From positions 115,576 to 179,575 of the forward strand of contig CBIHNI010000009.1 in NCBI GenBank assembly GCA_966211455.1: a DNA stretch of 64,000 nt, written 5' to 3'. The notes below the pieces were generated by a model that saw nothing but the letters and a program-made list of their open reading frames with translations, was not told where the DNA came from and did no database searches. Below are positions 42,245-61,309 of the stretch, one piece after another; position 1 is the first letter of the stretch; every line of letters starts with the position of its first letter. This DNA comes from an uncultured Bdellovibrio sp. (GTDB lineage: Bacteria; Bdellovibrionota; Bdellovibrionia; Bdellovibrionales; Bdellovibrionaceae). The translations under genes were made by a program, and so were the position numbers.

Positions 42245-42398
42245 GCTTCAAACAAACAGGATTCTCAAAGTTTGTCAAAATCCCAAGGAGAGGCTCTTTT
42301 GCAACACTCAAACACCCTCTCTGAAGTGAGACCGAATCTTGCTGACGCCGAGTATAAATGATTTCCAAGCGACCATATTCTCGAGAGATTGTCCCCCC

Positions 42399-42989
42399 AT
42401 GATCGCAAAAACAGCCATTGTCTATCCCGAGGTTAAACTCGGAAAAAATGCTCACATCGAAGACTACTGCATCGTCGGCGCTCCCCTGCAAGACGGAAGC
42501 TGTCCCGAAACTTGGATCGGCGATAACTGCGTGATTCGCTCACATACCGTCATTTATGCGGGCAACAAGATCGGCAATAACTTTAAGGCCGGCAACAAAT
42601 CCAACATTCGCGAACTCAACGAAATTGGCAACAATGTCAGTATCGGCACTCTAAGCGTCGTCGAGCATCATGTTGTGCTAGAGGACAATGTGCGTATTCA
42701 CACCTCTGCATTTATTCCCGAATATTCGATTTTAAAAAAAGGCTGCTGGATCGGCCCGCATGTGGTTTTAACCAATGCCCGCTATCCCAATCGCCCCGAT
42801 ACCAAACACAATTTGCAGGGCGTGACCGTACAAGCTGGCGCTGTGATCGGAGCCAACTCAACCCTTTCACCGGGAATTGAAATCGGCGAATCAGCTTTGG
42901 TTGGCTCGGGCTCGAATGTTGTCAGAAACGTCAGAAACCATTCCACTTGCGTCGGGAATCCGGCCAAAGAACGAGAGAAGAAAGCATGA
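42399..42989 (+). CDS. Left-handed beta-helix (hexapeptide repeat) N-acetyltransferase, WbpD-like
   Basis: 196 aa from the ATG at 42399. Tandem hexapeptide repeats: IGDNCVIRSHTVIYAGNKIGNNFKAGNKSNIRELNEIGNNVSIG. Confidence 0.85.
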   Translation: MIAKTAIVYPEVKLGKNAHIEDYCIVGAPLQDGSCPETWIGDNCVIRSHTVIYAGNKIGNNFKAGNKSNIRELNEIGNNVSIGTLSVVEHHVVLEDNVRIHTSAFIPEYSILKKGCWIGPHVVLTNARYPNRPDTKHNLQGVTVQAGAVIGANSTLSPGIEIGESALVGSGSNVVRNVRNHSTCVGNPAKEREKKA

Positions 42990-44122
42990 ACATCCCTTTC
43001 ATGGATCTGCATCGCCAATATCAATCGATCAAACCCGAAATCGATCAGGCTTTCGAGCGCACCATGAGCCGTTGCAGCTTTATTGGCGGATCTGACAAAG
43101 ACCTTTTTGAAAAAGAATTTGCCGAATCTATTGGTGCTAAATTTTGTATTGGCGTTGGCAACGGAACTGATTCTTTAATGCTGATCATGAAAGCGATGGG
43201 CTTGGGCGCTGGTGACGAAGTCGTTGTTCCGGCAAATACTTTCATCGCGACATCCGAAATGGTCACAGCATGCGGCGCCAAACCGATCTTCTGTGATATC
43301 GAAGAGTCAACCAATTTGATGGACCTGGATCATATCGAGCGCATCTTGTTGCAAAAGGCCTCCGGCGGGAAAAATCCTGTCAAAGCCATCTTACCGGTGC
43401 ACTTGTATGGCCGAATCATGGACATGAAAAAAGTGATGGCACTTGCCGAGAAGTACAATCTTTTTGTCATTGAAGATTGTGCTCAAGCCCACCGTGCCGT
43501 GATCGATGGAAAAATGGCTGGAACCTGGGGACACGCAGGCAGCTTCAGCTTTTACCCTGGAAAAAATCTGGGCGCCTTCGGTGATGCCGGCGCAATCGTC
43601 ACAAACGATGCGGCTTTGGCAGAAAGGATGCGCAAATTGGCCAATCACGGCCGTATTGGAAAATACGATCACGACATGGAAGGCTACAATTCGCGTCTTG
43701 ATGGCATGCAGGCTGCTTTTCTGCGTGTGAAGCTGCCGCACCTTCCTGAATGGACACGCAAACGCCAGGTTTTGGCGGAGCGCTATTACAGGCTTCTAAA
43801 GGACATCCCAAATGTAAAGACTTTGGCCCAGCCGTCACAAGCGACCGAGCACGTCTACCATCTTTTTGTTGTGCGTGTTCAAAACCGCTCTGCGATTCAA
43901 TCTTTCATGAAAGAAAAGAAAGGAATCGAGACCGGAGTTCACTATCCGACATCTTTACCATTTCTTAAGGCATATAGTTTCATGGGACATACTCCGAAGG
44001 ATTTTCCTGTATCTTATCAATTACAGTCGGAAATTATGAGCCTTCCCCTATTTCCAGAGCTGACTTTTGAGGAACAAGACTATATTGTCTCTGCTTTACG
44101 TGAAGCAGCGGCATTATCTTGA
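42986..44122 (+). CDS. DegT-family PLP aminotransferase, WbpE-like (UDP-2-acetamido-2-deoxy-3-oxo-glucuronate aminotransferase type)
   Basis: 378 aa. ATGA overlap with the acetyltransferase. MNIPFMDLHRQY, GNGTDSLMLIMKAMGLGAGDEVVVPANTFIATSE, SFYPGKNLGAFGDAGAIVTND. Confidence 0.88.
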   Translation: MNIPFMDLHRQYQSIKPEIDQAFERTMSRCSFIGGSDKDLFEKEFAESIGAKFCIGVGNGTDSLMLIMKAMGLGAGDEVVVPANTFIATSEMVTACGAKPIFCDIEESTNLMDLDHIERILLQKASGGKNPVKAILPVHLYGRIMDMKKVMALAEKYNLFVIEDCAQAHRAVIDGKMAGTWGHAGSFSFYPGKNLGAFGDAGAIVTNDAALAERMRKLANHGRIGKYDHDMEGYNSRLDGMQAAFLRVKLPHLPEWTRKRQVLAERYYRLLKDIPNVKTLAQPSQATEHVYHLFVVRVQNRSAIQSFMKEKKGIETGVHYPTSLPFLKAYSFMGHTPKDFPVSYQLQSEIMSLPLFPELTFEEQDYIVSALREAAALS

Positions 44123-44144
44123 TGCTTGTTTAAGGGGGGACTCT

Positions 44145-45209
44145 TTGATTCGATTTGCTCTTTTGGGTTGCGGACGCATCACATCTAAACACGCGGATCC
44201 TATTTTCAAAGGTCAAGTTGCCGACGCAGAACTTGCCGCCGTTTGTGACATCAACAAAGAAGCAGCGGATCGATTGGCAGCCAAGTACAATGTTCCGGCA
44301 TTTTACTCTTTGGATGAGCTTCTTCATCAAACTAAAGTGCAATTCGACGTTGTCTCCGTTCTGACCCCAAGTGGATTGCACCCCGAGCATTCCATTCAGG
44401 CTCTGTCGAAAGGCAAGCATGTCGTCGTCGAAAAACCGATGGCTCTGCGTCTGGAAGATGGCGAAGAGATGATTAAGACCGCAAAAAAACATGAACGCAT
44501 GCTGTTTGTGGTAAAGCAAAACCGATTCAATCCTGCCGTTCAGCAGTTGAAGACGGCGATCGCCGAAGGTCGCTTTGGCAAAATTTCTTTGGCGACGGTT
44601 CGCGTTCGTTGGTGCCGCCCTCAAGATTATTACAATCAATCTCCTTGGCGAGGAACTTGGGCTCTGGATGGTGGTGTATTTTCCAACCAAGCCAGCCACC
44701 ATGTCGATTTATTGCAATGGTTGGCGGGCGAAGTTGAAAGCGTTATCGCACGTGGTTCACAGGCCATGGCAAAAATCCAAGCCGAAGATACCGGTGTCGT
44801 TTTGGTGAAATTTAAAAATGGCGCGCTTGGTGTAATTGAAGCGACAACGGCCACTCGGCCCTTCGACCTTGAAGGTTCAGTTTCAATCTTAGGTGAAAAA
44901 GGGACTGTGGAAATCGCTGGCAAAGCGGTCAACGAAGTTCGTCACTGGCAATTCATCGATGCAAATGCCAACGATAAAACTGCGGCCACCGACTCGAATA
45001 CGGCCCCGCCAGATGTCTACGGTTTTGGACACGTTCATTATCTGAATAACGTCGTTCAGACATTGCTGGGTAAAGAAAAAGCTTTGGTAGATGGAGCCGA
45101 AGGCTTCTCGTGCTTAAAGCTTCTCAATGCAATTTATGAATCAATGGCTAGTGGCAAGGAAGTCTTCTTGTCTGAATCATTTAGCCAAAGCAAATTGGGA
45201 AAACGATAA
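44145..45209 (+). CDS. Gfo/Idh/MocA-family NAD-dependent oxidoreductase, WbpB-like
   Basis: 354 aa from the TTG at 44145, with AAGGGGGGA 5 nt upstream. IRFALLGCGRITSKH, HVVVEKPMAL. Confidence 0.85.
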   Translation: MIRFALLGCGRITSKHADPIFKGQVADAELAAVCDINKEAADRLAAKYNVPAFYSLDELLHQTKVQFDVVSVLTPSGLHPEHSIQALSKGKHVVVEKPMALRLEDGEEMIKTAKKHERMLFVVKQNRFNPAVQQLKTAIAEGRFGKISLATVRVRWCRPQDYYNQSPWRGTWALDGGVFSNQASHHVDLLQWLAGEVESVIARGSQAMAKIQAEDTGVVLVKFKNGALGVIEATTATRPFDLEGSVSILGEKGTVEIAGKAVNEVRHWQFIDANANDKTAATDSNTAPPDVYGFGHVHYLNNVVQTLLGKEKALVDGAEGFSCLKLLNAIYESMASGKEVFLSESFSQSKLGKR

Positions 45210-45249: not shown

Positions 45250-46209
45250 TTATTTTTTAATTCTTCGCCCAACGACATAAGGCTTGAAAGGATTTGCCCG
45301 AACAATCAGTTCAGCGACTAATCCAATTAAACCGATCTGCAGTCCCATTAGGAACAAGAATACGGCAATCGTTAATAACGGTCGGTTATTGAGCTGCAAA
45401 CCAAAAGGCAGCTCCAATAAATAAAAAATATGAAACAAAAGAAGATATAGACCTAAAGCCATACCGAGTCCCAAAAGCGGCACAGCAAAAGCTGCAAAAA
45501 AATAGAGCGGGTTTGGTGCAAAACGAGTCACCAACATCGTCGTCAGTAAATCAAAAGCCCCATAAAAATAACGGGCCAGCCCGTATTTGCTTGTCCCAAA
45601 TTGGCGACTGAAATGACGAACCGGAAGCTCCGTTACTTTTGCTCCCTTCCAAAATAATAAGACCGGAATATACCGATGCTGATTGCCGCGTAGATTCAGC
45701 TCCTTTAGACACCAGCTTCGATATAATTTCAGTCCACAGTTAAAATCATGAAGCTGCAATCCAGAAGCAAAGCGAACGACCGTATTAAAAAACTTTGAAG
45801 CCCAGCGCTTTTCGGTGGGATCATTACGATCTTTCTTCCATCCAGAAACAAGGTCGTATCCCTCAAGAGCTTTGTTGATCAATCTCGGAATCTCTTCCGG
45901 ATCATCCTGCAGATCAGAATCCATTGTCACAATAAACTCGTATTTGGCGTGTTCAAATCCGGCCTGCAAGGCAGCTGCTTTTCCAAAATTCATTCTCAAA
46001 AAAAGGGCCGATGTCTGAGGTTCAGTTTGAGCAAGTTGCTCGATGATCTGCGGACTTTGATCGCTCGAACCATCATCCACAAAAATAAGCTCCCAATCCT
46101 TAATTTGTGGATTGCGCTGAATCATGGAAACAATTTTTTGATGCAATAAGTTTAAGCTTTCTGCCTCATTAAAAACAGGAATAACGACACTTAAAGTAAT
46201 TGGATTCAT
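45250..46209 (-). CDS. GT2 polyprenyl-phosphate glycosyltransferase (ArnC/Dpm1-like) with C-terminal TM helices
   Basis: 319 aa from the ATG at 46209, 1 nt after the asnB stop. LSVVIPVFNEAESL, IFVDDGSSDQS, VTMDSDLQDDPEEIPRL, and two C-terminal TM helices. Confidence 0.85.
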   Translation of the reverse strand: MNPITLSVVIPVFNEAESLNLLHQKIVSMIQRNPQIKDWELIFVDDGSSDQSPQIIEQLAQTEPQTSALFLRMNFGKAAALQAGFEHAKYEFIVTMDSDLQDDPEEIPRLINKALEGYDLVSGWKKDRNDPTEKRWASKFFNTVVRFASGLQLHDFNCGLKLYRSWCLKELNLRGNQHRYIPVLLFWKGAKVTELPVRHFSRQFGTSKYGLARYFYGAFDLLTTMLVTRFAPNPLYFFAAFAVPLLGLGMALGLYLLLFHIFYLLELPFGLQLNNRPLLTIAVFLFLMGLQIGLIGLVAELIVRANPFKPYVVGRRIKK

Positions 46210-46210
46210 A

Positions 46211-48091
46211 CTAATAGCCGTACCTCTGAAGAAGCCATTTTTGCAAGACATAACTTGTCCAGAGCGGTTTGAAAAGGCTGTCCTGGTGATCCAGATGCCG
46301 TTGGAACATGCTCAGTATAAATTCTCGATTGAAAATATCAGTTCGGCGGCAATTATCTTCAGAGAAGGCATCCAAAAATTCGCTTTTCAATGGGCCACTA
46401 AGCAACAAGCCAACGGGCGATGTAAAACCCTTTTTCTTTTGCCCCAAAAGATGTGGAGGAAGGCTGTCGCGTCCAATCTCTTTTAAAATTCTTTTTGTCT
46501 TCAAGTTCGAAAACTTCTCCGCTTCTGGTAAAGCCTGCGCCAATTGAAAGAGGTCCAAATCTAGAAAAGGAGCCCGCAATTCAATACCTAATTTCATTGA
46601 AGCGCGGTCCGAATTTCGAAGTACATATTCTGGTAAAAATGTTCTTTGGTAAAGATGGGAAAAAGCAGTCAAAGAGTTAGAAGATGCTTCTTCGTCAAAA
46701 ATCTGACGATACAACTTTTTGATTTCTGAAACCGCGTCTTCGGCCTGTCCGGGATGCCTCAATCCTGAGAATAGTTCCTGAGTATGAAAAGACCCCGCCC
46801 ATATCAAATTGCGATACATCGGATCCTCAGCAAGCCCTAATGCGAACCGTTTGATCTTTAGTCCGATTGGCATGTAAGAGTGGGACGGCTTAATTTGCTG
46901 AGCGATAAAAGTGAAAAAATTTTTTTTGAGCACCCTAGGCAGCCACTCGACTTTACCAGCTATCCATGCAGCTTTAAAAATTTCATATCCGAAAAAGACT
47001 TCGTCGCCACCATCACCAGTAAGAGCAACTTTATGAGACTTAGCTAACTTCTGGCAAATATGATACTTTGGTAAAAAACCAGGATCTGCAATAGGTTCGT
47101 CCATTTGCGGAAGAACTTCCTGCGCGATCCTTGCCATGTCTTTTAGACTGAGCTCTATTTCTGTGTGATCAGTCTTAAAAAAATTTGCCGTTTTGGCTGC
47201 CAATGTACTTTCGTCAAAGCTCGCATCTATATTGCGAATCGTAAATGTTGAGATTTTTTGCGAATCTAAAATTTTCTTTGCCTGCGACAGGACCAACGAA
47301 GAATCAATCCCGCCGCTAAGAAGAACGGCAACGGGCACATCAGCGCGAAGAGATCTTCTTACGGCGCTTTCCAAACCCTGTTCAACCTGCTCTTGCGAAG
47401 GAATTGCGCCGGCCTTGCATGACAAGTCAAAGTACCGCCACACTTGAGCTCGCTTCCCGTCCCAAATTAGAGACTGACCAGGAAGAAGCTTCTGAAAATT
47501 CTTTTCGAAAGTTTCGCTACCGGCCCACGATTCCGTCACCAAAAATCGGGCAGCCAGAGAAATGTTCACCTCACCATTCGGTATCAGGATTCTCAAAGCT
47601 GATAGCTCGGACGCAAAAGCAAAGTTTTGACCTTCTGAATAGTAATAAAGTGGCTTTTGACCGAAAGGATCACGCGCTAGAAAAGCAACTTCATTTTTAG
47701 AATCGAAAATGGCAAAAGCAAACATGCCATTCATTTTTTTTACGCATTCCGAGCCCCACTCTTGATAAGCCCGTATCACAACTTCAGTATCAGATTGGGT
47801 GAAGAATCGATGCCCCCTCGTCTCAAGCTCAGCCCTTATTTCGATGTAATTATAAATCTCGCCGTTGTAGGTAAGCATCTGAAGATGCTCTTTATCTATG
47901 AACGGTTGCTTCCCCCCCTCCAGATCTATAATGGACAGTCTGACATGCCCAAAGCTAGCAGGACCTGAACTATGTATGCCTGTTCCATCCGGGCCTCGAT
48001 GCCGAATAGCACTCATTGCTTTCTCAACATTCGCTTCTCTTTCAGATTTCGGAATTTGCGCTGAAATAATGCCTAGGATTCCGCACATGCA
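46211..48091 (-). CDS. asnB: Asparagine synthetase B family, glutamine-hydrolysing (WbpS-like glycan amidotransferase candidate)
   Basis: 626 aa. Class-II GATases need Cys2, so the start must be MCGILGIISA at 48091. PP-loop VLLSGGIDSSLVL. Confidence 0.9.
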   Translation of the reverse strand, partial: CMCGILGIISAQIPKSEREANVEKAMSAIRHRGPDGTGIHSSGPASFGHVRLSIIDLEGGKQPFIDKEHLQMLTYNGEIYNYIEIRAELETRGHRFFTQSDTEVVIRAYQEWGSECVKKMNGMFAFAIFDSKNEVAFLARDPFGQKPLYYYSEGQNFAFASELSALRILIPNGEVNISLAARFLVTESWAGSETFEKNFQKLLPGQSLIWDGKRAQVWRYFDLSCKAGAIPSQEQVEQGLESAVRRSLRADVPVAVLLSGGIDSSLVLSQAKKILDSQKISTFTIRNIDASFDESTLAAKTANFFKTDHTEIELSLKDMARIAQEVLPQMDEPIADPGFLPKYHICQKLAKSHKVALTGDGGDEVFFGYEIFKAAWIAGKVEWLPRVLKKNFFTFIAQQIKPSHSYMPIGLKIKRFALGLAEDPMYRNLIWAGSFHTQELFSGLRHPGQAEDAVSEIKKLYRQIFDEEASSNSLTAFSHLYQRTFLPEYVLRNSDRASMKLGIELRAPFLDLDLFQLAQALPEAEKFSNLKTKRILKEIGRDSLPPHLLGQKKKGFTSPVGLLLSGPLKSEFLDAFSEDNCRRTDIFNREFILSMFQRHLDHQDSLFKPLWTSYVLQKWLLQRYGY

Positions 48092-48948
48092 GTGTCCTTC
48101 GCTTGAAAACAAGTGGCGTGCAAGCCCTTCTCAAGACTTGTCATATGAAAACCTAAATCCGCCTGAATCTCGGCGCTATCCCAAGGGGGGTGCGCATGCA
48201 TAAATTTAAACTGCTGAAGAGGAAAGTTCGAAGTTTTTACAAATTTTGAGATAACATGTGCTGCTAATTTAATAAGTGGCAGCGGTATCGGAATGATCCA
48301 TGTGTGACTTTGTATTAAGTCTTTAATTTTATGAGCTAAATCAATTGTTCGGATCGGCTCGGGTCCACCCATGACCCAAACCTTCTTTTTCCATTTCTGC
48401 TCGGTAAGTAAACGAAGAACGGCGCGACCGACATCTTCTACATACAGGGGCTGTATATAAATATTTGCATCATAAGGCACAGGTGTAACCGGTGACTTGC
48501 GAATCACATTCAAAAGGCTGATCAAATTCTTTGAATCACCTGGTCCATAGATAAGACTGGGTCTTAATATTGCCCAATTTTGCAAATAGCTTTGAATCAG
48601 TTCGTTATCTCCATCTTGTTTGGTTTGACCGTATGGTCCCAAGCGATGAACTGCAGAAACTGATGAGATGTGAATCCAGCGAATATTCGGCTTATTCTTA
48701 AAAAGTTGGACCACTTCTCGAACCGAATTCGTATTGGCTTCTTTCAAAACAGGTTCAGGTCCATTAATCACTCCTGAACAGAAAACGATAGCATCCAGCT
48801 CAAGGCTCAGCTCTCGCAGCTTGCATATAGATTCTGCTTTAACAGTTTCACGTAAAGACAGCCGAAAAACTTGATGAGACTCTTTTTCAATCAGTTTAGA
48901 AAGATGCCGCCCCAGAAAACCATAAGCGCCTACGACTGCAACCTTCAT
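48073..48948 (-). CDS. NAD-dependent epimerase/dehydratase family (extended SDR)
   Basis: 291 aa. KVAVVGAYGFLGRHL, PYGQTKQDG (YxxxK). The ATG at 48948 follows the radical-SAM stop. Confidence 0.8.
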   Translation of the reverse strand: MKVAVVGAYGFLGRHLSKLIEKESHQVFRLSLRETVKAESICKLRELSLELDAIVFCSGVINGPEPVLKEANTNSVREVVQLFKNKPNIRWIHISSVSAVHRLGPYGQTKQDGDNELIQSYLQNWAILRPSLIYGPGDSKNLISLLNVIRKSPVTPVPYDANIYIQPLYVEDVGRAVLRLLTEQKWKKKVWVMGGPEPIRTIDLAHKIKDLIQSHTWIIPIPLPLIKLAAHVISKFVKTSNFPLQQFKFMHAHPPWDSAEIQADLGFHMTSLEKGLHATCFQAKDTACAES

Positions 48949-48950
48949 CA

Positions 48951-50282
48951 CTAAATCCGTAAGGTATTTCGCACGAATCGATAGGCCGTATTAAACCCAT
49001 AAGTTTTCAGCCAATTGAAACGGAAATAATATCCGTAGGCCTTTTGCGATGCTTGAACCACCTCTTGCGGAGTTGCAGAGCTAATATTCACGACCGGTCT
49101 GTATTCATCAAATTCTGCAAAGTCTGTTGTCATCAGCCGCTCTTTGCTATCTTCAAACAACGGAGTTCCCGGAAAAGGAGTCATCGTGCAAAACTGTGCA
49201 CCCATAGTATTCATCCAACGGGAAAGATCGATTGTTTTTTGCATACTCTGAGCCGTGTCTCCAACCAGGCCCAACATATAGAAAGCATTAATTCGAACAC
49301 CCTTTTTTTGAAGATAGTCCAAGATCGATTTTTGGAAATCGACTTGAGGTGCTTTTTTTCCAGACTCTTTAAGGATATCCAAGTTTCCGGTTTCAATGCC
49401 GAAATTAACTCCACGAAAGCCAGATTCATACATGATATCGATGAGTTCGAAATTCAAGCAGTCAACGCGAGTTTCGCAAGCCCACTCGATTTTCAAATTT
49501 CGACGCATAATTTCGCGAGAAATCTCTTCAGCGTGTTTCTTATTTAATGTGAAACAGATGTCTCGGAAAAGAACGCTGCGCACGCCATGATTTTTCACCA
49601 AACTCTCAATCTCATCCACAACCAGCTTAGGAGACCGCATTCGATATTTCTTTGTCTGCTCGACCATATACGGACAAAAATCACAGTTAAAAGAACAACC
49701 TCGACTTGATTGCAAGCTCATAAAAGGTCGAAGGTGAAGCAACGGAAAATAATTGAACTGCTTAATGTCGACCCCAGTCCAATCAGGAATCGGCAATTGA
49801 TTCAGATCCGTTACCAGCCCAAAGTTCAACTTACCGGTAAAGTCATGCTTCCCTTCAAAGAAAGCCATGGCCGTCGCTTCAACCTCACCATGGATCAAAA
49901 AATCCGAATCTGCCTCAAAAAGTTGAGGTTGCGTCATCACAAAGGGTCCGAAAAAACCAATTTTTGATTTTGGATATTTTTTCTTTGTTTCACGAGCGAA
50001 AGCGACTTCATCTTTATAGCAATGCATAGAGGACGCGATCAGGATTATATCTTCACCTTGAGTTGCACCATCATAAATACGAACATCCCAACCTTGCTTA
50101 CGAAAGATCCCTTGTAAGTATCCAAGATGCAAAACTGGAAGCTCGACAAAATTACTTTTCAAGCCAGAGACCAATTTGCCAAAAAAACCCTGCGCTTGCA
50201 TGTAAGAACCAAATCCACCGGTATGATCACGGTTGGCTTTTTTATCAGCAAATTTTAAATCAACAAGCGCTATCGAAGGCAT
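48951..50282 (-). CDS. B12-binding-domain radical SAM protein (class B)
   Basis: 443 aa. The N-terminal Rossmann-like B12-binding region (DIILIASSMHCY...KIGFFGPF) is followed by SSRGCSFNCDFCPY (CxxxCxxC). Confidence 0.85.
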   Translation of the reverse strand: MPSIALVDLKFADKKANRDHTGGFGSYMQAQGFFGKLVSGLKSNFVELPVLHLGYLQGIFRKQGWDVRIYDGATQGEDIILIASSMHCYKDEVAFARETKKKYPKSKIGFFGPFVMTQPQLFEADSDFLIHGEVEATAMAFFEGKHDFTGKLNFGLVTDLNQLPIPDWTGVDIKQFNYFPLLHLRPFMSLQSSRGCSFNCDFCPYMVEQTKKYRMRSPKLVVDEIESLVKNHGVRSVLFRDICFTLNKKHAEEISREIMRRNLKIEWACETRVDCLNFELIDIMYESGFRGVNFGIETGNLDILKESGKKAPQVDFQKSILDYLQKKGVRINAFYMLGLVGDTAQSMQKTIDLSRWMNTMGAQFCTMTPFPGTPLFEDSKERLMTTDFAEFDEYRPVVNISSATPQEVVQASQKAYGYYFRFNWLKTYGFNTAYRFVRNTLRI

Positions 50283-50283: not shown

Positions 50284-51015
50284 TCATCTCCTCAGCAGGC
50301 GAAAGACAAAGTTGGGGATCAGTTTTAAACAAAAAGCTATACCTCTCCACCAGCCAGGTACATATGCCAAACGATCGTTTCTCTCAAATACTTCAATGGC
50401 ACGCCTTGCGGCATTCTCAGGAGAACAGGTCGGTAAAAGTAATTTTTGTCCATAGGACATTGATGTGTCAAGGTAGCCAAATCGAACTACAGTGACCTTT
50501 ACAGAACCTGACAATGCATGCAAAAGACTTTCTGCGTAAAACTCGAGGCCAGCTTTGGATGCGCAGTAAATAGCTCCACGTCCACGAGGCCTAACAGCAC
50601 CCATAGTGCTAGCAATTAACAATGAAATGTTCGGGGAGACCGCACTTCTGTTTTGCAACAAAATCTCGATAATTTCCACGGGTCCATAGAAATTTGTGTG
50701 AATTAACTGCTGCGCAGATAAAAGAGAGCTTTGACCTGGCAAATTCGGATTGTAGTGGCCCGCTAACAAATAGCATTTTACAATCTGCGAAGCGAGATTT
50801 TGAAGTTGTAAAATACCATCCGCTGAAAGCGGCTGACCGATGTCTAAAACAAGAATTTGGCACTCATTTCCGAACCGAATCTTAAGGTCCTGAGACAAGC
50901 GCATAAGCTCTTCTTGATCGCGTCCACAAAGAATAAGCTTATGTCCGCGCCTCGCCAATTCTTCCGATAGACTTCGCCCAAGACCAGAGTTTGCCCCAAC
51001 CACCAAATCCATCAA
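50284..51015 (-). CDS. Short-chain dehydrogenase/reductase, DprE2-like
   Basis: 243 aa. VVGANSGLGRSL, YCASKAGLEF, and the C-terminal tail IPNFVFRLLRR. Its start overlaps the stop of the FAD oxidase. Confidence 0.7.
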   Translation of the reverse strand: MMDLVVGANSGLGRSLSEELARRGHKLILCGRDQEELMRLSQDLKIRFGNECQILVLDIGQPLSADGILQLQNLASQIVKCYLLAGHYNPNLPGQSSLLSAQQLIHTNFYGPVEIIEILLQNRSAVSPNISLLIASTMGAVRPRGRGAIYCASKAGLEFYAESLLHALSGSVKVTVVRFGYLDTSMSYGQKLLLPTCSPENAARRAIEVFERNDRLAYVPGWWRGIAFCLKLIPNFVFRLLRR

Positions 51016-52355
51016 AGATCCAATCTGGCTGTAAAATGAGAATTCAAAACAAATTCAGGATCTAAACTTCGGACAGCCTCTTGAAAGACGTTTAATTCGG
51101 GAACAAACTCGCGCGCACGCGAGCCCGAAATATAACTTGCCTTTGTTATATTCAGCCTTCCACCTTTTTCCAAAGCTAGTAAATCCAATTTCTCAAGAAG
51201 ATCCAATCCGTTCCTGTGATTCGGGATATCCCAGGTAAAAACAATTCCTTGCCCCTGAAAAGATCGGCCCACGGAAGATCCCGAAAAAATTTTAAGTGTC
51301 CCCATAGGAATCGTGCATTCAGATGTCTTTCGTACTTTCTCAAATCCGGTTAAATATGACTCAACATCCGCAAATGGAATCAAGACTTGATGCTCGAAAA
51401 ATCCCGATTTCCCATAAGAACGGTAATAATGCCACTTATTAGCGATTGGGAAATGATGAAGCAACGATGGCTCATAAGATTCTTTTTGAGCCATCGCCGC
51501 CGCAAGATACATTTTATTCACCGTTTTCGATACAAAGGGACGATTTAAAATAGAAAATGCCGGACTTAATTTAGTTGACTGGATATATAGGTTCTTTTGA
51601 ATTTGATAGCCTTCTTCCCAGCTTCCCAATACAAGAAATCCCTTTCCAACTGATGAAGGGTCCGAAACATCATTCCAACTATATAAAGTCGAAGCTTCTG
51701 ATTTATACTTTTCTAGCATCTCGACCGTCTGGTGAAGGCTCAAGACTTGCAAATTTCGCTTCCGATAAGCGCCAACTCCTTGCCTTAAAACCTTCAACCG
51801 AGCACTTAATATCAAACCAGTCAGCCCATAACCCGCGCGAGTCAAATCCCAGATTTCTGGCCTTAATTGCGCACCAGTTTGCACATTTCCCAAACGGGGA
51901 TGATATAGATGGCAGGACTCGACCCAATCGCCAAAAGTTCCTTCGCGAAATTGATTTTTTCCATGCACATCCTGCGCAATACAGCCACCAATTGTGATAT
52001 TTGGATGGCCTGGCAAAACTGGAAGTGTGAAACCTTTAGAGTTTAAAAACTCAAGCAAATGACAAAGACTTACGCCCGCTTCAACCTCAATGATGCCTTC
52101 GCGAGGATCAAAATTTAAAATTCGATTGAGGCGAGTGAGATCAATGCTGACAACATCCTTCCCAAAGCTGGCCGGAGTATAAGATAGGCCGGCGCCCCGA
52201 GGAATCCACTTTTTAAACTGAACTAATGACTGAAGTTCCCGCAAACGCTCAGGGCGAAGGGCCAATGCCGCACATCGAAAGCTTGAATCTGCAGATTGCA
52301 TCTCGATATCCAAAGTCTTTGCCTGGACCGAATCGCTTTTTATTGCTTCCATCAT
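51012..52355 (-). CDS. FAD-linked oxidase (FAD_binding_4), DprE1-like
   Basis: 447 aa. IPRGAGLSYTPASFG, PVLPGHPNITIGGCIAQDVHGKNQFREGTFGDWV, AGYGLTGLILSARL. Confidence 0.78.
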   Translation of the reverse strand: MMEAIKSDSVQAKTLDIEMQSADSSFRCAALALRPERLRELQSLVQFKKWIPRGAGLSYTPASFGKDVVSIDLTRLNRILNFDPREGIIEVEAGVSLCHLLEFLNSKGFTLPVLPGHPNITIGGCIAQDVHGKNQFREGTFGDWVESCHLYHPRLGNVQTGAQLRPEIWDLTRAGYGLTGLILSARLKVLRQGVGAYRKRNLQVLSLHQTVEMLEKYKSEASTLYSWNDVSDPSSVGKGFLVLGSWEEGYQIQKNLYIQSTKLSPAFSILNRPFVSKTVNKMYLAAAMAQKESYEPSLLHHFPIANKWHYYRSYGKSGFFEHQVLIPFADVESYLTGFEKVRKTSECTIPMGTLKIFSGSSVGRSFQGQGIVFTWDIPNHRNGLDLLEKLDLLALEKGGRLNITKASYISGSRAREFVPELNVFQEAVRSLDPEFVLNSHFTARLDL

Positions 52356-52383: not shown

Positions 52384-53499
52384 TTAGTGACTCGTATTGA
52401 TCGTCAACAAACCAATCACGGGCGACCTCATTCGATTAGCATCAGATTGCGGGAAAATATCCGATGCTCCATAAAGATTTGCGATTTCTTGATTAAGCTT
52501 AGGCAAATCTAAAAGATGCTCGGCCCAGTTTCCCGTTAAAGGGTCACATGTATTTGTCGGGAATTTAGGATCAACGAAGCTGAGGTTCTCGTTGGCCACC
52601 AATTGATCTAGCTTTTGCAAAATTAAAGGACAGATCAACCCTCTTGTCCGAGTCGCCATCGAATGGATTGCAGATGGGGGAACTGAAATATTTCTCTCTT
52701 TTAGGGCCTGTGCGATAAAGCTTTCACGAATGCCATGGTAAGACTTCAAAGAATCACGTTCTTTATGTCCCCACACTTTCGGCCGATCTTGCTCTTCTAC
52801 TTGCAGATGCAAAGCGCTCAGTTCGCGCACAATCTTTGGATTAAACGAGTTTGCGGCCGAACCCATAAAAATGCGTCCGTTTTCTTCCATCGCACGTTGC
52901 AGGGTTTGATAGAAAGATTCGGGATCATAAATATGCTCGATCACGTCATAAGAAGCGACGATCGAAAAAAGAATTTTCTTATCGTGAGCCGCCTTCACAA
53001 CAGCGTCCGTGTCACCACAAATAATTCCAACCGGACGATACCCCAACGCCTTCGACACCACTGTAAAATCTTGGCAAGAAACCTCGTAAATATCGTTGTA
53101 GAAAACATTCTTTAGCCCCATTTCCATCGCCAGCATGGAAATCAAACCCGTGCCACCGCCATACTCTAAGAAATAGACATCACTGTGAATCTCCATGCTA
53201 TCAGTCGCATATTCCATAACGAAATTCAGTTTCGTCAGACAGGTGTGCAGGCTACTTTGAATTCCGCTCAAATAACGTTTCGAGTATTCTGAGATTGGCA
53301 AAGATGTTACATCCAAAACGCTCAGTTTTTTCAGCAATCGTTCGGAAGCCTTCATGATCTCTTTTCTATGTGCTTCGGTGCCTCCGGCTGGCAGGCTCTT
53401 CAGATATCGAAAAATCTGCGCATAAACCGGCAAAGGCAGTTGATTCAGGGATTTTTTCGCAAGACCCTTAGCCGTTTTTTTGAAAAATTGCAGGGCCAT
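52384..53499 (-). CDS. Class I SAM-dependent methyltransferase with ~110-aa N-terminal extension
   Basis: 371 aa from the ATG at 53499, in a TAATG overlap with the neuA-like stop. LEYGGGTGLISMLAMEMG (motif I), ASYDVIEHI. Confidence 0.75.
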   Translation of the reverse strand: MALQFFKKTAKGLAKKSLNQLPLPVYAQIFRYLKSLPAGGTEAHRKEIMKASERLLKKLSVLDVTSLPISEYSKRYLSGIQSSLHTCLTKLNFVMEYATDSMEIHSDVYFLEYGGGTGLISMLAMEMGLKNVFYNDIYEVSCQDFTVVSKALGYRPVGIICGDTDAVVKAAHDKKILFSIVASYDVIEHIYDPESFYQTLQRAMEENGRIFMGSAANSFNPKIVRELSALHLQVEEQDRPKVWGHKERDSLKSYHGIRESFIAQALKERNISVPPSAIHSMATRTRGLICPLILQKLDQLVANENLSFVDPKFPTNTCDPLTGNWAEHLLDLPKLNQEIANLYGASDIFPQSDANRMRSPVIGLLTINTSH

Positions 53500-54182
53500 T
53501 ACGAAACTCCTTCGTGTTTTTGCATTTTCAGCAAGCCTTCGCAAATCACCCAATCCGCAGGCTCATCAATTTCAAATCCCGACACCTCGGGCATCTCGTA
53601 AAGACCGATTTTCCCGCTCAGACGATTTTTCGATTTTAAAATATCGCCGACAGAGCTCATATAGAAAGCGCCGTTTTCCATAAAAAGCCCATCGAAATCC
53701 TGCCGACGTGGGCGTTTTTGGAAGTCGTAATTCAACGGTTTCCCGTCAGCAGTCCAAAAAAATCTTTTCGTACGCACGACCGATAAAATGCTATCGGCTT
53801 TTTCCTCTTCCAAAAGGTGCAAAGCTCCAGCCAAATCTTCGGCTCGCAAAAAAGGATTGGTCGCTTGGATCAAAATGAATAGATCTTCACTTTGCAATTC
53901 CGCTTTTCCCAGATACTCCAACATGACACTTTCGGTTGAGGATGTATTCTGTGCATTCAAAGCATCGCGTTTATAGATTTTAACTTTCGAACTTTTAAGA
54001 TCACGAGCGACTTTTTCAATGTCATCACTATCAGTCGCAATGACGATTTCATCGATTAGCGGACACTTCTCAGCCGCTTCCATTGTCCAGTAGAGCAATG
54101 GTTTACCGGCAAGAGGTTTAATATTCTTGCCCGGAATGGACTGGCTCCCTCCACGCACTGGGATAAAAGCCACTCGTTTCAT
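53499..54182 (-). CDS. Acylneuraminate (NulO) cytidylyltransferase, NeuA-like
   Basis: 227 aa. AFIPVRGGSQSIPGKNIKPLAGKPLL, LIQATNPF. The ATG directly abuts the neuB-like stop. Confidence 0.88.
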   Translation of the reverse strand: MKRVAFIPVRGGSQSIPGKNIKPLAGKPLLYWTMEAAEKCPLIDEIVIATDSDDIEKVARDLKSSKVKIYKRDALNAQNTSSTESVMLEYLGKAELQSEDLFILIQATNPFLRAEDLAGALHLLEEEKADSILSVVRTKRFFWTADGKPLNYDFQKRPRRQDFDGLFMENGAFYMSSVGDILKSKNRLSGKIGLYEMPEVSGFEIDEPADWVICEGLLKMQKHEGVS

Positions 54183-55121
54183 TTAGCGGTCTCGGTATTT
54201 CAGCTTGTCGCGCTGAACTTGTTCGATCGGTAGAATTTCGGTTTTCTTGAAATTCAAAGCTTTATAAGTCGCATTCACGTCTCGGCAAAGCTTCTGCAGT
54301 CCAGCTGGCTCCAATGAAGCCGCATGGTCAGTTCCCTTCCAAGTGCGATCTTTCGTAAAGTGACGCTCGATCCAGCGTGAGCCCAAAGTGTAGGCCGCAA
54401 TATCAATCGCGATACCCAAATGGTGACCCGAAAACGCAATATCTCTCACTCGAGATTCAAAGCGATCTTGGATTTTGGTGATTTCCAGCAAACAAACATC
54501 TTCAAACGGAACTGGATATCCCGAAGTGCACGAATACAGAACGACTCGGTCCGCTTGTTTTTTATCTTCAAAGAATTTCACGATCTGTTCTTGTTCAGCT
54601 GTGGTCGTCATTCCCAAAGAAATGTGCACTTCGCCTTTGTACTGATCGCGCAGAACTTCCAGCATTTTGAAATGGTTGTTACATGCCGATGGGACCTTGA
54701 TGAATTCAGGATCCAAAGAGATCGTCTCTTTCGCCGAAGTCACATCCCAAACCGAAGTCGCCCAAACGATACCGATCGATTCGCAATACTTTTTCAGCTG
54801 CGCGTGTTGATCGATATTCAATTCCAAAAATTCACGGTGAGCACCATAAGTCGCACCGTAAGCGTTGGCTGGATTTGGGTGAGGAGCATTGTACTGCTCT
54901 TCGGTCAGCAATTCTTTTGGAGTGCGCTTTTGAAATTTAGCTGCGTAGGCACCGCAATCTTTCGAAAGTTTGATCAATTCTTTGGCGATTTCAAATTCGC
55001 CTTTGTGATTGCAGCCGATTTCCGAGATCACTCGGGGTTGCTGATATTTTCTCATATAGCCCGCGCTTTCAGTCTTGTTAAAAGAGTTTTCTACTCTGCC
55101 AAAGATAGAATGAGGATTCAT
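54183..55121 (-). CDS. NeuB-family sugar-PEP condensing synthase lacking the C-terminal SAF domain
   Basis: 312 aa from the ATG at 55121, in an ATGA overlap with the galE stop. VISEIGCNHKGEFEIAKELIKLSKDCGAYAAKFQKR, KVPSACNN, FSGHHLG, ERHFT. The protein ends about 35 aa after the TIM-barrel core. Confidence 0.82.
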   Translation of the reverse strand: MNPHSIFGRVENSFNKTESAGYMRKYQQPRVISEIGCNHKGEFEIAKELIKLSKDCGAYAAKFQKRTPKELLTEEQYNAPHPNPANAYGATYGAHREFLELNIDQHAQLKKYCESIGIVWATSVWDVTSAKETISLDPEFIKVPSACNNHFKMLEVLRDQYKGEVHISLGMTTTAEQEQIVKFFEDKKQADRVVLYSCTSGYPVPFEDVCLLEITKIQDRFESRVRDIAFSGHHLGIAIDIAAYTLGSRWIERHFTKDRTWKGTDHAASLEPAGLQKLCRDVNATYKALNFKKTEILPIEQVQRDKLKYRDR

Positions 55122-56104
55122 TTTGCATTGCGCAAGGATTTCATTTCCCATTGGTATGCCGTCCGACAAATCAGCTCCAGATTGTCGCGTTTCGGGCTCC
55201 ATTTGAGAATACGTTTCACCTTGTCGTTCGAAGCTACGACCTGCGGCAAATCCCCAGGCCGCCGGGCTTCAAGTTTCACCTCGAAATCCTGGCCACTGAC
55301 CTTTTTCATCACGTCGATCACCTGCCGCACAGAAAAACCGTGCCCATAGCCACAATTCATCAATTCCGAGCTGCCGCCTTTTTCAAGGTGGTGAAGAGCT
55401 GCTGTATGAACATCGGCTAAATCGTCGACATGGATAAAATCCCGCACCCCTGTCCCATCTGCCGTCGGATAATCCGTTCCAAAAATCGACAGGGACTTTA
55501 GCTTTCCTGCCGCCGTCAGCGCGGCTCGTTTGATCAGAACAGAGCCTTCATTGCCATGCTGACCACGCAGGCCTTGCTCGTTGGCACCTGCCACATTGAA
55601 GTAACGAAGAATTATGTACTTATAATTCAAAGATTGGGCGCAGTCCTGAATCACCTTTTCGCTCATCAGCTTTGAACGCCCATACGGAGTCAGCGGGTTG
55701 GTGACTGAACCTTCTGTCACCAGCTCCATTCCTGGATCCTGGTACACGGCTGCCGTCGATGAAAAAACGAAATATCGAACGCCTGATTTCTGGCAGGACT
55801 CCAGCAAATTCACCGTTCCCTGGAAGTTATTTTCGTAGTACTTTTCGGGAACTTTGAGAGATTCGGCCACATTGGTGAATGCTGCAAAATGCATGACACC
55901 TTCAATTTCATTTTCATTCAAAATTTCGCGCACCAATTGAATATCACGAACATCGCCTTCAAAAAGCTTCGCTTTCGAATGAACCAGATCACGATGGCCC
56001 GTCGAGAAATTATCTAAAATGAAAACCTGATCACCACGTTGAACCAATGCATCGACCGCATGCGAGCCGATATAACCTGCGCCACCGGTAACAAGAATTC
56101 TCAC
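55118..56104 (-). CDS. galE: UDP-glucose 4-epimerase
   Basis: 328 aa from the GTG at 56104, in a GTGA overlap with the rfbC stop. This gives (M)RILVTGGAGYIGSH. YGRSKLMSE, NVAGA. Confidence 0.9.
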   Translation of the reverse strand: MRILVTGGAGYIGSHAVDALVQRGDQVFILDNFSTGHRDLVHSKAKLFEGDVRDIQLVREILNENEIEGVMHFAAFTNVAESLKVPEKYYENNFQGTVNLLESCQKSGVRYFVFSSTAAVYQDPGMELVTEGSVTNPLTPYGRSKLMSEKVIQDCAQSLNYKYIILRYFNVAGANEQGLRGQHGNEGSVLIKRAALTAAGKLKSLSIFGTDYPTADGTGVRDFIHVDDLADVHTAALHHLEKGGSSELMNCGYGHGFSVRQVIDVMKKVSGQDFEVKLEARRPGDLPQVVASNDKVKRILKWSPKRDNLELICRTAYQWEMKSLRNAK

Positions 56105-56664
56105 GACCCACTCCACTTAAATTTTGGATCTTGAGCATACTGAGCAAGGCTCTGCATTTCTGCATCCTTCGGACTCACGATTGGGTCTTGATATGGCCAC
56201 TCGATTTGCAAGGCTGGGTCCGACCAGCGAATGCCAGACTCTCCCTTGCCATTGTATTCAGATGTGCACTTGTAAAGAAGATCAGCACTTTGAGACAGAA
56301 CTGCAAAACCATGGGCAAAACCTGGGGGGATCCAAAACCACTGCGGCTTTGCTCCATCCAACTCGACATGAATGGACTTTCCAAAGGTCGGAGACCCTTG
56401 CCTTACATCGACGGCCACATCAAAGATACGACCGTTTGCGCATGTCACAAGCTTTCCCTGTGGTTGATCCCACTGATAATGAAGACCACGAAGCACTTTT
56501 TCGCTCGATCTCGAGAAATTGTCCTGCACGAACTGGGTCGGCAATCCAGCTTCCTGAAAAACTGATTGCTTATAACGCTCGACAAAGAAGCCCCTCGAAT
56601 CCGGAAAACTTCTCAACGTAATGAGCTTCAAGCCCGTAATAGGAAATGTTTCGATTTGCAGCAT
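56101..56664 (-). CDS. rfbC: dTDP-4-dehydrorhamnose 3,5-epimerase
   Basis: 187 aa. DSRGFFVERY, LRGLHYQ, FWIPPGFAHGF. Confidence 0.93.
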   Translation of the reverse strand: MLQIETFPITGLKLITLRSFPDSRGFFVERYKQSVFQEAGLPTQFVQDNFSRSSEKVLRGLHYQWDQPQGKLVTCANGRIFDVAVDVRQGSPTFGKSIHVELDGAKPQWFWIPPGFAHGFAVLSQSADLLYKCTSEYNGKGESGIRWSDPALQIEWPYQDPIVSPKDAEMQSLAQYAQDPKFKWSGS

Positions 56665-56715
56665 ATCGGCCTCAAATCTAGGTCAGCCCCACCGAAAGTG
56701 CAAGGCGCCGCGAGC

Positions 56716-57609
56716 CTAGCCTTGTGAATTGCTGCGGATGCGTTTTAGGCAAAGACTCACGGACTCTTGCCATGATGGCAGCTGCAAACCAAAGATCTTC
56801 GAAAGCTTGTCTTGGTTGAGCCGCGAATTGTGCGGACGATGGGCCGGTGTCGGATAGTCCGAAGTCGGGATCCCCTCCACCTTTTCCACAGCCACCGAAT
56901 AATTCAGGGCGCGAGCTTCAGCAAAAATTCCTTCGGCGAAACCAGCCCAGCTAACAAAACCCTGTCCGGCCATGTGATACACGCCGGATGCAAATTTCTC
57001 CCCAGCCTTCACGCGTTCGATAATTTTCCAAACAGCCTCGGCAATCGCCGGCGCATAGGTCGGCCCGCCCACTTGGTCATTTACGACCCGCATGGTGGCC
57101 CGATCCCGACCGTAGCGAAGCATGGTCTTCAAAAAATTTTTTCCGTATTCCGAATACACCCAGGACGTTCTGAAAATAAAATGCCGACAGCCCGAAGCAT
57201 AAATTGCTTCGTCACCATGAAGCTTGGTTTCACCGTACCAGTTGCAAGGAGCCTTGGGCGAATCCTCGGCCCATGGCTTCGAACCTTCGCCCGAATAGAC
57301 ATAATCCGACGAGAAATGAATCATCAGCGCGCCATTGGTCCCGCACCATCTGGCAATCGCCTGCGGTGCTTTGGCGTTCAGGCTTTCAGCAAGATCACGG
57401 TCTTCTTCAGCTTTGTCGACTTGGGTGTAGGCCGAGCACACGACAACAATTTCCGGCCCATACTTATCCAGAAAACCTGCAAGCTTTGCAGGCTCTTCAA
57501 AATTAGCTTCGTGACTGGAAACATAAACCGTCTGCCCTTCGTATTGCGAAGGCATCATGGCTTGAAAAGATTGAGCAAGCTGTCCGCTTTTACCGAAAAC
57601 TAAAATCAT
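56716..57609 (-). CDS. rfbD: dTDP-4-dehydrorhamnose reductase
   Basis: 297 aa. ILVFGKSGQLAQ, CSAYTQVDKAE, YGETKLHGD, RTSWVYSEYGKNFLKTM. Confidence 0.92.
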   Translation of the reverse strand: MILVFGKSGQLAQSFQAMMPSQYEGQTVYVSSHEANFEEPAKLAGFLDKYGPEIVVVCSAYTQVDKAEEDRDLAESLNAKAPQAIARWCGTNGALMIHFSSDYVYSGEGSKPWAEDSPKAPCNWYGETKLHGDEAIYASGCRHFIFRTSWVYSEYGKNFLKTMLRYGRDRATMRVVNDQVGGPTYAPAIAEAVWKIIERVKAGEKFASGVYHMAGQGFVSWAGFAEGIFAEARALNYSVAVEKVEGIPTSDYPTPAHRPHNSRLNQDKLSKIFGLQLPSWQESVSLCLKRIRSNSQG

Positions 57610-57610
57610 C

Positions 57611-61300: not shown

Positions 61301-61309
61301 GGTGCGACC

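Follow-up and report, generated by a model that had tools for sequence, protein, structure and literature searches.

A DprE1/DprE2-like oxidase-reductase pair linked to a polyprenyl-phosphate glycosyltransferase in a Bdellovibrio glycan locus

The oxidase-reductase pair and its gene array

We consider here a stretch of 64,000 nucleotides from an uncultured Bdellovibrio sp. (contig CBIHNI010000009.1; the whole stretch is called the window below), and within it two adjacent minus-strand genes that encode a flavin adenine dinucleotide (FAD)-dependent oxidase (51012-52355) and a short-chain dehydrogenase/reductase (SDR, 50284-51015) resembling mycobacterial DprE1 and DprE2. The pair sits in a tightly packed, co-directional minus-strand array, whose gaps and overlaps amount to at most a few tens of bases and which also holds genes for GalE, a NeuB-like synthase, a cytidylyltransferase, a methyltransferase, a radical S-adenosylmethionine (SAM) enzyme, an NAD(P)-binding protein, an AsnB-type amidotransferase and a family 2 glycosyltransferase (GT2). 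In canonical systems the partner of such a pair is a UbiA-type phosphoribosyltransferase, and we call homologues found with one UbiA-linked and those found with a GT2 GT2-linked. Our analysis indicates that both window proteins belong to a widespread sister branch of DprE1/DprE2, apart from the UbiA-linked members.

The motifs quoted in the original prediction for this pair, IPRGAGLSYTPASFG, PVLPGHPNITIGGCIAQDVHGKNQFREGTFGDWV and VVGANSGLGRSL, are all found in the translations of the oxidase and reductase reading frames. The oxidase (447 aa) had been predicted to be an FAD_binding_4 flavoenzyme of DprE1 type rather than of MurB or GlcD type, and searches with the FAD_binding_4 and DprE1 profiles, which, like that with adh_short for the reductase, gave matches far above chance, bear this out. 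The protein scores 78 bits against FAD_binding_4 in Pfam and 191.6 bits, over model positions 38-449 of 449, against the NCBIfam DprE1 model (NF053785), its sole full-length profile match; the next flavoenzyme family in NCBIfam reaches 45 bits. Chains of DprE1 in the Protein Data Bank (PDB) match residues 51-447 at 7.6e-33, while the next family, L-galactonolactone dehydrogenase, matches over the FAD domain only (1e-9), and the xylitol oxidase and D-lactate dehydrogenase structures again cover only that domain. An AlphaFold2 (AF2) model of the oxidase (pLDDT 87, pTM 0.88) retrieves DprE1 in all of its top 49 Foldseek matches, with TM-scores of 0.78-0.84 and E-values down to 3e-35; other vanillyl-alcohol-oxidase families lie lower, the next at 0.68. 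Identities as GlcD, GlcE, a sugar-lactone oxidase, xylitol oxidase or D-lactate dehydrogenase were considered and rejected, the matches covering the FAD domain only, at 45 bits or less or at E-values of 1e-9 or worse.

The residues of DprE1 are also largely in place. His132, Lys134, Lys367, Lys418, Gln336, Tyr60 and Trp230 (Mycobacterium tuberculosis numbering) are kept in the window oxidase, as H131, K133, K355, K405, Q323, Y59 and W227, and in all clades. Cys387, the benzothiazinone attachment site, is Thr in the window oxidase, and two positions that we take to line the DprE1 pocket are changed, Gln334 to Glu321 and Tyr415 to Asn402. By sequence, catalytic residues and predicted fold the oxidase is thus confirmed as DprE1-like, and no other vanillyl-alcohol-oxidase subfamily fits. 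Its score nevertheless lies below the curated equivalog cut-off of the DprE1 model (500 bits), and, judged from their sequences, neither window protein is an orthologue of DprE1 or DprE2.

The reductase (243 aa) scores 64 bits against adh_short in Pfam, and its translation contains the SDR motifs GANSGLG (GxxxGxG), IASTMGA (with the catalytic Ser) and YCASK (YxxxK). Among 127 NCBIfam families its best model is PRK07102, at 108.9 bits against a curated cut-off of 267, and DprE2 (NF053786) comes third, at 73.6 bits against a cut-off of 250. PRK07102 is the family of the reductases that adjoin UbiA-linked DprE1 homologues in Rhizobium, Chondrinema and Agrobacterium (247-359 bits), and since it covers these UbiA-linked Gram-negative reductases, both matches of the window protein are of DprE2 type. 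The segment YCASKAGLEF and the C-terminal tail IPNFVFRLLRR, which had been thought to recall DprE2, are both present in the translation, and a hydrophobic and basic tail is common to both clades, the UbiA-linked reductases included, so that the resemblance holds.

The two genes are translationally coupled. Their junction reads cTTTGATGg, with the oxidase stop TGA at 51014-51012, so that the stop overlaps either possible start of the reductase, TTG at 51015 or ATG at 51012; the overlap with the 243-aa SDR that had been read from this junction is therefore correct. A stop/start overlap is also seen in homologous loci, and oxidase and reductase co-diversify, with a distance correlation of r = 0.83.

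The array ends, as had been noted with a slightly shorter reading frame (45250-46209), in a GT2 gene at 45250-46251 on the minus strand, for which 46209 is an alternative start. Its product scores 109 bits against Glycos_transf_2 and 179.8 bits against ArnC in NCBIfam, and in the PDB it matches ArnC at 163.5 bits (residues 10-318), GtrB at 93 (17-318) and dolichol-phosphate mannose synthase (DPMS) at 52. The DxD motif is the DSD of TMDSDLQDDP, and two hydrophobic segments follow at the C-terminus. Because of the full-length likeness to ArnC and GtrB, the DxD motif and the two C-terminal helices, we assign it as a polyprenyl-phosphate glycosyltransferase.

A GT2-linked sister clade

Relatives were collected by scanning one genome per species for the motif GC[IV][AG]x[ND][VIA]HGK, which gave at least 589 of them; the best 80, together with four metagenomic loci, make up the 84 related loci analysed here. 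None of six UbiA-linked sequences carries the motif, so that the 589 matches probably fall in the GT2-linked clade, and at least 589 species-level genomes would probably hold members of the clade of the window oxidase. Among 5.8 billion proteins, the closest relatives of the window proteins are only about 37% identical to them. A tblastn search of plasmids brought up canonical loci in Rhizobium, Paracoccus, Agrobacterium and Chondrinema, whose oxidases are 28-30% identical to that of the window and whose gene order is UbiA, GtrA (in two), FAD oxidase, SDR and candidate membrane genes for glycosyltransferases of the C fold (GT-C). In four of the five plasmid loci examined, the genes for UbiA and the oxidase are neighbours or have a single gene between them.

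In neighbour-joining trees with 200 bootstraps, the UbiA-linked oxidases, together with DprE1 of Mycobacterium smegmatis, are separated from every GT2-linked sequence in 200 of 200 replicates, and the UbiA-linked clade of the reductase tree excludes the window and GT2-linked reductases with the same support (200/200). Scores against the DprE1 model run from 373 to 428 bits for UbiA-linked sequences and from 208 to 220 for GT2-linked ones, and the window oxidase, at 191.6, stands a step lower still. At position 334 the window oxidase and all 80 clade members have Glu, where all six UbiA-linked sequences have Gln; at position 415 Asn is found in the window oxidase and in 70 of the 80, and Tyr in the six. 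Both this sister clade and its wiring, with a GT2 instead of UbiA and with tailoring by radical SAM, AsnB and methyltransferase enzymes, appear to be uncharacterised, the enzymology itself being familiar.

What is encoded around the pair in these relatives? The reductase adjoins the oxidase in at least 73 of the 84 loci, which come from many phyla, so that the pairing is conserved in related genomes. Of 80 loci, 42 have a GT2 gene right beside the pair on the same strand, and 58 have one no more than two genes off. Counted over 85 loci (the 84 and the window), the neighbours include a small class I methyltransferase in 25, an NAD-epimerase-like protein in 20, AsnB in 16, a radical SAM enzyme in 13, an LPG_synthase_TM flippase-like protein in 14 and large multi-transmembrane proteins, some of them PMT_2-like or YfhO/DUF6044-like, in 64. 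In what we call architecture A, the small methyltransferase comes after FAD oxidase, SDR and GT2, as it does in 25 loci, and many loci have the pair and the GT2 with no further tailoring enzyme. A c17-type soluble protein of 559 aa and the LPG_synthase_TM flippase-like protein, both present in relatives, are absent from the window.

No UbiA-type transferase had been seen in the 64 kb, and this observation stands. A scan of all open reading frames by motif and transmembrane segments found none in any frame of the window, and neither the window, translated in six frames, nor any of the 84 loci contains a match to a hidden Markov model (HMM) of DPPRS enzymes that was built from four phosphoribosyltransferases of canonical loci. 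An HMM of GtrA-type flippases from three canonical loci likewise found no match in the window or in the GT2-linked loci. These results bear on the possibility that the pair follows the canonical route, from undecaprenyl-phosphoryl-ribofuranose to -arabinofuranose, known from mycobacteria, from the arabinosylation of pilin in Pseudomonas aeruginosa and from the three-component systems of Gram-negative bacteria, with its UbiA-type phosphoribosyltransferase encoded outside the window. DprE1 and DprE2 are, after all, the closest characterised relatives of the pair, DprE1/DprE2 homologues go with arabinofuranose-containing glycans in Gram-negative bacteria (PMC11127046), and the search for UbiA stopped at the window, with the rest of the genome outside. 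However, the window proteins lie outside the fully supported UbiA-linked clade, the oxidase reaches about half the DprE1-model score of the UbiA-linked Gram-negative homologues and carries the clade-specific changes Q334E and Y415N, a UbiA gene occurs in none of the 84 related neighbourhoods as against four of the five plasmid loci, and the window has no GtrA-type gene by the HMM search. We consider the canonical route very improbable.

The linkage to a GT2 could also be read differently, as the mark of a common glycan pathway only, with the pair acting before the GT2 step on a soluble substrate such as a nucleotide sugar, a sugar acid or a lactone. The array does contain enzymes of soluble sugars (GalE, the NeuB-like synthase, the cytidylyltransferase and AsnB), other relatives in the vanillyl-alcohol-oxidase family oxidise soluble sugar lactones or alditols, and a subclade from Lysobacterales has the pair without a nearby GT2. 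On the other hand, the only full-length relatives of the oxidase are lipid-sugar oxidases, the soluble-sugar oxidases matching its FAD domain alone, the reductase has the hydrophobic C-terminal tail common to DprE2-type enzymes, and the tight linkage, across phyla, to GT2s of polyprenyl-phosphate type, to flippase-like proteins and to polytopic proteins resembling GT-C is consistent with a membrane pathway. A soluble substrate seems to us unlikely.

Tailoring partners, GT-C enzymes and other genes of the locus

The gene after the reductase (48951-50282, minus strand) encodes a 443-aa radical SAM enzyme (Radical_SAM 69.6 bits) whose N-terminal domain is B12-like and degenerate and whose CxxxCxxC cluster motif reads CSFNCDFC. 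In NCBIfam it reaches 145.6 bits with HpnJ (TIGR03471; cut-off 577.6), 121.6 with BchE and 108.5 with AprD4 (NF033070; cut-off 500), all below the cut-offs; its best PDB match is AprD4 (6fd2, 87.6 bits), and B12-dependent methylases give 33 bits or less. The enzyme thus resembles AprD4 and HpnJ but, with scores so far below their cut-offs, is a member of neither family. HpnJ, a radical SAM enzyme that serves in making the cyclitol ether of hopanoids, has a lipid-linked sugar as its substrate. AprD4 is a radical SAM diol dehydratase that works with the NADPH reductase AprD3 in the C3' deoxygenation of aminoglycosides (PMC5461906). Like AprD4, the window enzyme keeps an NAD(P)-reductase-like neighbour, which is likened to AprD3 by its position: an extended or atypical NAD(P)-binding SDR of 292 aa (48073-48951, minus strand) that matches Epimerase and RmlD_sub_bind in Pfam and NDUFA9-like chains in the PDB. 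Seven loci have a radical SAM enzyme at least 37% identical to that of the window, and in each of them a homologue of this SDR is encoded beside the radical SAM gene or, in L097, one gene further off; the protein is a candidate reductase partner of the radical SAM enzyme.

Next in the array comes an AsnB-type glutamine-dependent amidotransferase (46211-48112, minus strand; Asn_synthase 253.6 bits, GATase_7, and TIGR01536 at 432.8 bits, above its cut-off), whose true start is likely to be 48088 (MCGILG). Upstream of the oxidase, across a gap of 28 nucleotides, lies a 389-aa protein with a class I SAM methyltransferase domain (52384-53553, minus strand; Methyltransf_11/23/31).

Homologues of the radical SAM enzyme with 55-63% identity occur within the same set of genes, in four different orders, in loci of four other genomes (L002, L093, L094 and L095), the set comprising oxidase, reductase, radical SAM enzyme, NAD-reductase-like protein, AsnB and GT2, and often a methyltransferase too. 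The order is FAD oxidase, SDR, radical SAM, reductase-like, AsnB and GT2 in L002; methyltransferase, radical SAM, reductase-like and AsnB, then a convergent GT2, FAD oxidase and SDR followed by a UDP-glucose dehydrogenase in L093; AsnB and radical SAM, with the reductase-like gene on the opposite strand, and GT2, FAD oxidase, SDR and methyltransferase in L094; and in L095 a fusion of radical SAM enzyme and class I methyltransferase (9001-11217, 738 aa), then reductase-like, FAD oxidase, SDR and AsnB, beside a Wzm/Wzt O-antigen ABC transporter with a Wzt_C carbohydrate-binding domain. AsnB is present in these four loci, in L096 and in most of the loci with a linked radical SAM enzyme. A class I methyltransferase belongs to the set in L093 and L094 as well, and the fusion in L095 argues that the methyltransferase is part of the module. 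BLAST detects no homology between the 389-aa window protein and the module methyltransferases of the other loci; by its position and by the methyltransferases in those loci it is a probable module member. In L096 the GT2, AsnB, radical SAM and reductase-like genes precede one for a flippase-like protein and one for a PMT_2 GT-C, and the oxidase-reductase pair is absent, in keeping with a view of the pair as an accessory epimerase that supplements a carrier-lipid pathway.

Such company raises another possibility, namely that the pair acts on a lipid-linked sugar and yet does not epimerise it, the keto group being used by the radical SAM enzyme, the methyltransferase or an aminotransferase while the SDR reduces a later intermediate or restores the configuration. 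Keto-sugars are the usual entry points to C-methylation and amination, the pair has further tailoring enzymes around it (radical SAM, NAD-reductase-like, methyltransferase and AsnB), and a small methyltransferase comes after the pair and the GT2 in architecture A. However, translational coupling and co-diversification of oxidase and reductase are what one expects of a two-step couple, and in many loci no other tailoring enzyme accompanies the pair and its GT2. We regard the loss of net epimerisation as decidedly unlikely.

If the product is carried by a polyprenyl phosphate, which enzymes could use it? GT-C-like membrane proteins had been said to occur elsewhere in the locus, and this proved right. 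A 544-aa protein (37398-39032, minus strand) gives an AF2 model of pLDDT 93.4 whose top 29 Foldseek matches are all GT-C enzymes, AglB, ArnT, ALG12, AftD, Pmt4 and PglB among them, and it is a candidate periplasmic user of a polyprenyl-phosphate sugar. Directly upstream lies a second GT2 with a C-terminal hydrophobic region (39036-39998, minus strand; Glycos_transf_2 61 bits), which shares 29% identity with the module GT2 across the catalytic core and has a 55% homologue 2.7 kb from the oxidase in L002. A 561-aa paralogue of the GT-C enzyme, of the same PMT_2-related family, is encoded at 24577-26262 (minus strand); the two are 26% identical over 249 aa (E 1e-18) and have in common the first-loop motif G[SH]DTFQYF, the fold having been checked for the 544-aa paralogue. 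The gene for the 561-aa protein overlaps by 23 nucleotides an upstream gene (26240-27538, minus strand) for a protein with nine transmembrane segments that resembles MATE and Polysacc_synt proteins (Polysacc_synt 40.8 bits, MatE 30.1 bits) and is a candidate flippase, which could alternatively be an ordinary Wzx.

Pfam, phmmer against the PDB and a k-mer homologue search gave no identification of the two paralogues, and their GT-C identity was reached via an exhaustive HMMER search followed by AF2 and Foldseek. Their family, which is without a Pfam model of its own, has 270 representatives at E of 1e-3 or below among 1.84 billion proteins; 16 of 40 relatives match PMT_2, and Gly38, Asp43, Arg73, Arg345 and Pro431 are invariant in the alignment of 40 sequences. 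Since the second GT2 pairs with the 544-aa enzyme, parsimony would tentatively give the module GT2 to the MATE-like protein and the 561-aa GT-C as putative partners.

The host is a Gram-negative bacterium that makes lipopolysaccharide (LPS), as the genes for KdsA, GmhB, rmlABCD and UDP-glucose dehydrogenase in the window confirm, and the window KdsA falls in a 90%-identity cluster with a protein of a Pseudobdellovibrionaceae metagenome-assembled genome. The glycan region has a G+C content of 0.42-0.45 against 0.49-0.51 in the flanks. Between 44.9 and 57.8 kb, scans for promoters and terminators were uninformative, with no more matches than shuffled sequence would give.

Several other features of the locus deserve a record. 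The upstream part of the array consists of GalE (55118-56116), the NeuB-like synthase (54183-55202) and the cytidylyltransferase (53499-54182), all on the minus strand, so that this NeuB pair shares an operon with the oxidase-reductase module; a second NeuB-family synthase and cytidylyltransferase lie at 16858-17940 and 18572-19297 on the plus strand. The two synthases, taken in order of position in the window, score 267 and 180 bits with the NeuB model, both under its cut-off of 400, and the two gene pairs suggest two different pathways of nonulosonic or ulosonic acid type. At 56101-63997 (minus strand) the dTDP-rhamnose genes are interrupted by methionine genes, in the co-directional order rmlB, rmlA, metF (61310-62254), metH (57611-61300), rmlD and rmlC; rmlA, rmlC and rmlD score above their NCBIfam cut-offs. 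At 27764-33714 (plus strand) a 643-aa protein with nine transmembrane segments and no family is followed by four genes, for a protein of the fatty-acid-desaturase family (PF00487, 87.6 bits), two class I methyltransferases, one of them scoring 41.8 bits against the small methyltransferase seen in FAD-SDR-GT2 loci, and a 448-aa product with no Pfam match, a lipid-modifying-looking block inside a glycan locus.

Adjoining the GT-C/GT2 pair, 35331-37373 (minus strand) encodes a 680-aa protein in which a class II glutamine amidotransferase domain is joined to a WbuX-type N-acetyl-sugar amidotransferase (124.8 bits), a 52% homologue of which stands beside the module in L002. Converging on the end of the module operon, 42339-45209 (plus strand) encodes a hexapeptide acetyltransferase, a DegT aminotransferase and a Gfo/Idh/MocA oxidoreductase, a trio like WbpD/E/B, which make 3-acetamido sugars, and the same trio adjoins the module in L002. 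A 241-aa protein at 23757-24482 (plus strand), among glycan genes, has an N-terminal hydrophobic segment and a weak match to BclA_C (C1q-like; E 1e-3). Among the relatives, positions 1-13000 of L098 carry four PMT_2 GT-C genes interleaved with short GT2 genes (225-240 aa), a layout that reads as a dense array of carrier-lipid glycosylation systems, and this locus also has a distant (30%) homologue of the window radical SAM enzyme. The loci with the pair and no GT2, from Dokdonella and other Lysobacterales (L031, L043, L049, L050, L052, L055, L074-L077, L081 and L083), form a subclade in 200 of 200 bootstraps; upstream, most of them carry a gene for a KefB-like transporter, and on the opposite side several encode an ankyrin-repeat membrane protein some 1140 aa long.

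A proposed pathway and its place among known systems

How does the window pair compare with the systems already described? DprE1/DprE2 are a major tuberculosis drug target, and the window pair is like them in being an FAD oxidase and an SDR from adjacent coupled genes, in its fold, in the His/Lys/Lys/Gln catalytic set and in a reductase type with a hydrophobic C-terminal tail. Unlike them, it has as its partner a GT2 and no UbiA phosphoribosyltransferase, is only about 23-27% identical to them, falls in a separate clade and carries Q334 to E, Y415 to N and C387 to T. The GT2 partner, the separate clade and the changed residues mean that the substrate is probably not ribofuranose. The original prediction had suggested a different lipid-linked substrate; comparative genomics and phylogeny strengthen that suggestion, which is still inferred.

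To our knowledge, epimerisation of a sugar on its carrier is known only for pentofuranoses derived from phosphoribosyl pyrophosphate (PRPP), by DprE1/DprE2 and in the Gram-negative three-component systems, and we know of no GT2-based pathway with a DprE1/DprE2-type redox step or a radical SAM step on a carrier-linked sugar. A literature search for GT2-linked DprE1/DprE2 homologues, made outside subscription journals, turned up nothing relevant, the only systems with such homologues being PRPP/UbiA-based. The three-component pentofuranose systems of Gram-negative bacteria include auxiliary epimerases (Kelly et al., PNAS 2024, PMC11127046), and the authors of that study stated that they were not aware of further epimerases among the systems for O-antigen side-chain glycosylation. 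In these systems, in the TfpW-dependent glycosylation of pilin with D-arabinofuranose in Pseudomonas aeruginosa and in the plasmid loci with UbiA, GtrA, FAD oxidase, SDR and GT-C, an auxiliary epimerase modifies a polyprenyl-phosphate donor, which a periplasmic GT-C then uses, a scheme that the window may share, with its GT-C genes and its MATE-like gene. Their lipid-linked sugar comes from PRPP via a UbiA-type synthase, whereas the lipid-sugar synthase of the window is a GT2, and their oxidases score as the UbiA-linked sequences do and their reductases pass the PRK07102 cut-off, unlike those of the window. In the ArnC/ArnD/ArnT pathway of L-Ara4N, as in the GtrA/GtrB/Gtr* and CsbB/GtcA/YfhO systems, a GT2 loads undecaprenyl phosphate with a monosaccharide taken from a nucleotide sugar and a GT-C transfers the sugar in the periplasm; the ArnD step modifies the sugar on the lipid, and the window GT2 is most like ArnC.

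From the homology, fold, catalytic residues, translational coupling, gene associations, absence of UbiA and presence of GT-C enzymes described above, we infer a pathway, by which we mean its substrate, the position oxidised, the net epimerisation, the order of steps, those that take place on the lipid and the GT-C that uses the product. On balance we lean slightly towards a model in which the pair oxidises and re-reduces a secondary hydroxyl of a polyprenyl-phosphate sugar loaded by the GT2, giving an epimer within a tailoring line that is followed by periplasmic transfer. At the cytoplasmic face, the ArnC/GtrB-type GT2 would load a nucleotide-derived sugar, possibly a uronic acid, onto undecaprenyl phosphate; a uronic-acid precursor is weakly suggested by AsnB, by the UDP-glucose 6-dehydrogenases that recur in L003, L032, L036 and L093 and by the window's own Ugd. 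The flavoenzyme would then turn a secondary hydroxyl of the lipid-linked sugar, at C2 by analogy with DprE1, into a ketone, which the coupled SDR, using NAD(P)H, would reduce from the other face to yield the epimer. Further tailoring may follow, by the radical SAM enzyme and its NAD(P) reductase-like partner, in an AprD4/AprD3-like deoxygenation or an HpnJ-like rearrangement, and by the AsnB amidotransferase and the methyltransferase. Finally, the polyprenyl-phosphate sugar would be flipped, and a GT-C would decorate LPS, O-antigen or capsule in the periplasm. The product of the pair is probably a rare surface sugar and not arabinose.

A number of points weigh against the model of a GT2-loaded, lipid-linked substrate epimerised by the pair. 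The function of the clade is read from sequence, fold and gene association, and C2 as the position oxidised comes from analogy only. Resolution inside the oxidase tree is weak, with the subclade linked to radical SAM enzymes recovered in only 48 of 200 bootstraps. In the window the GT2 gene lies four genes from the pair, not adjacent to it, and the operon itself contains no GT-C or flippase gene; elsewhere, the Lysobacterales subclade has the pair without any nearby GT2, and the set in L096, which is without the pair, implies that the pair is an optional add-on and not part of the core. The UbiA search spans the 64-kb window and the 84 loci, not the rest of the host genome. AsnB, the radical SAM enzyme and the methyltransferase, moreover, could act on the nucleotide sugar before it is loaded onto the lipid.

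More generally, and tentatively, we raise the possible though doubtful generalisation that the clade is a large unrecognised family of epimerases acting on GT2-loaded polyprenyl-phosphate hexoses, pentoses or uronic acids, and that in this Bdellovibrio-like bacterium it would form part of a seven-enzyme line on the carrier (loading, epimerisation, radical deoxygenation or rearrangement with its reductase, amidation and methylation) that makes a rare, undescribed sugar for GT-C glycosylation of the envelope in the periplasm. Cultured carriers of the sister-clade pair are at hand in Magnetospirillum sp. SS-4, Bradyrhizobium sp. Leo170 and Dokdonella sp. MW10. If the proposal is true, extra enzymes would become available for glycoengineering, new rare sugars would be predicted in the LPS, capsules or glycoproteins of many phyla, and redox tailoring on the carrier would be a general route by which bacteria diversify the donors of periplasmic glycosylation.

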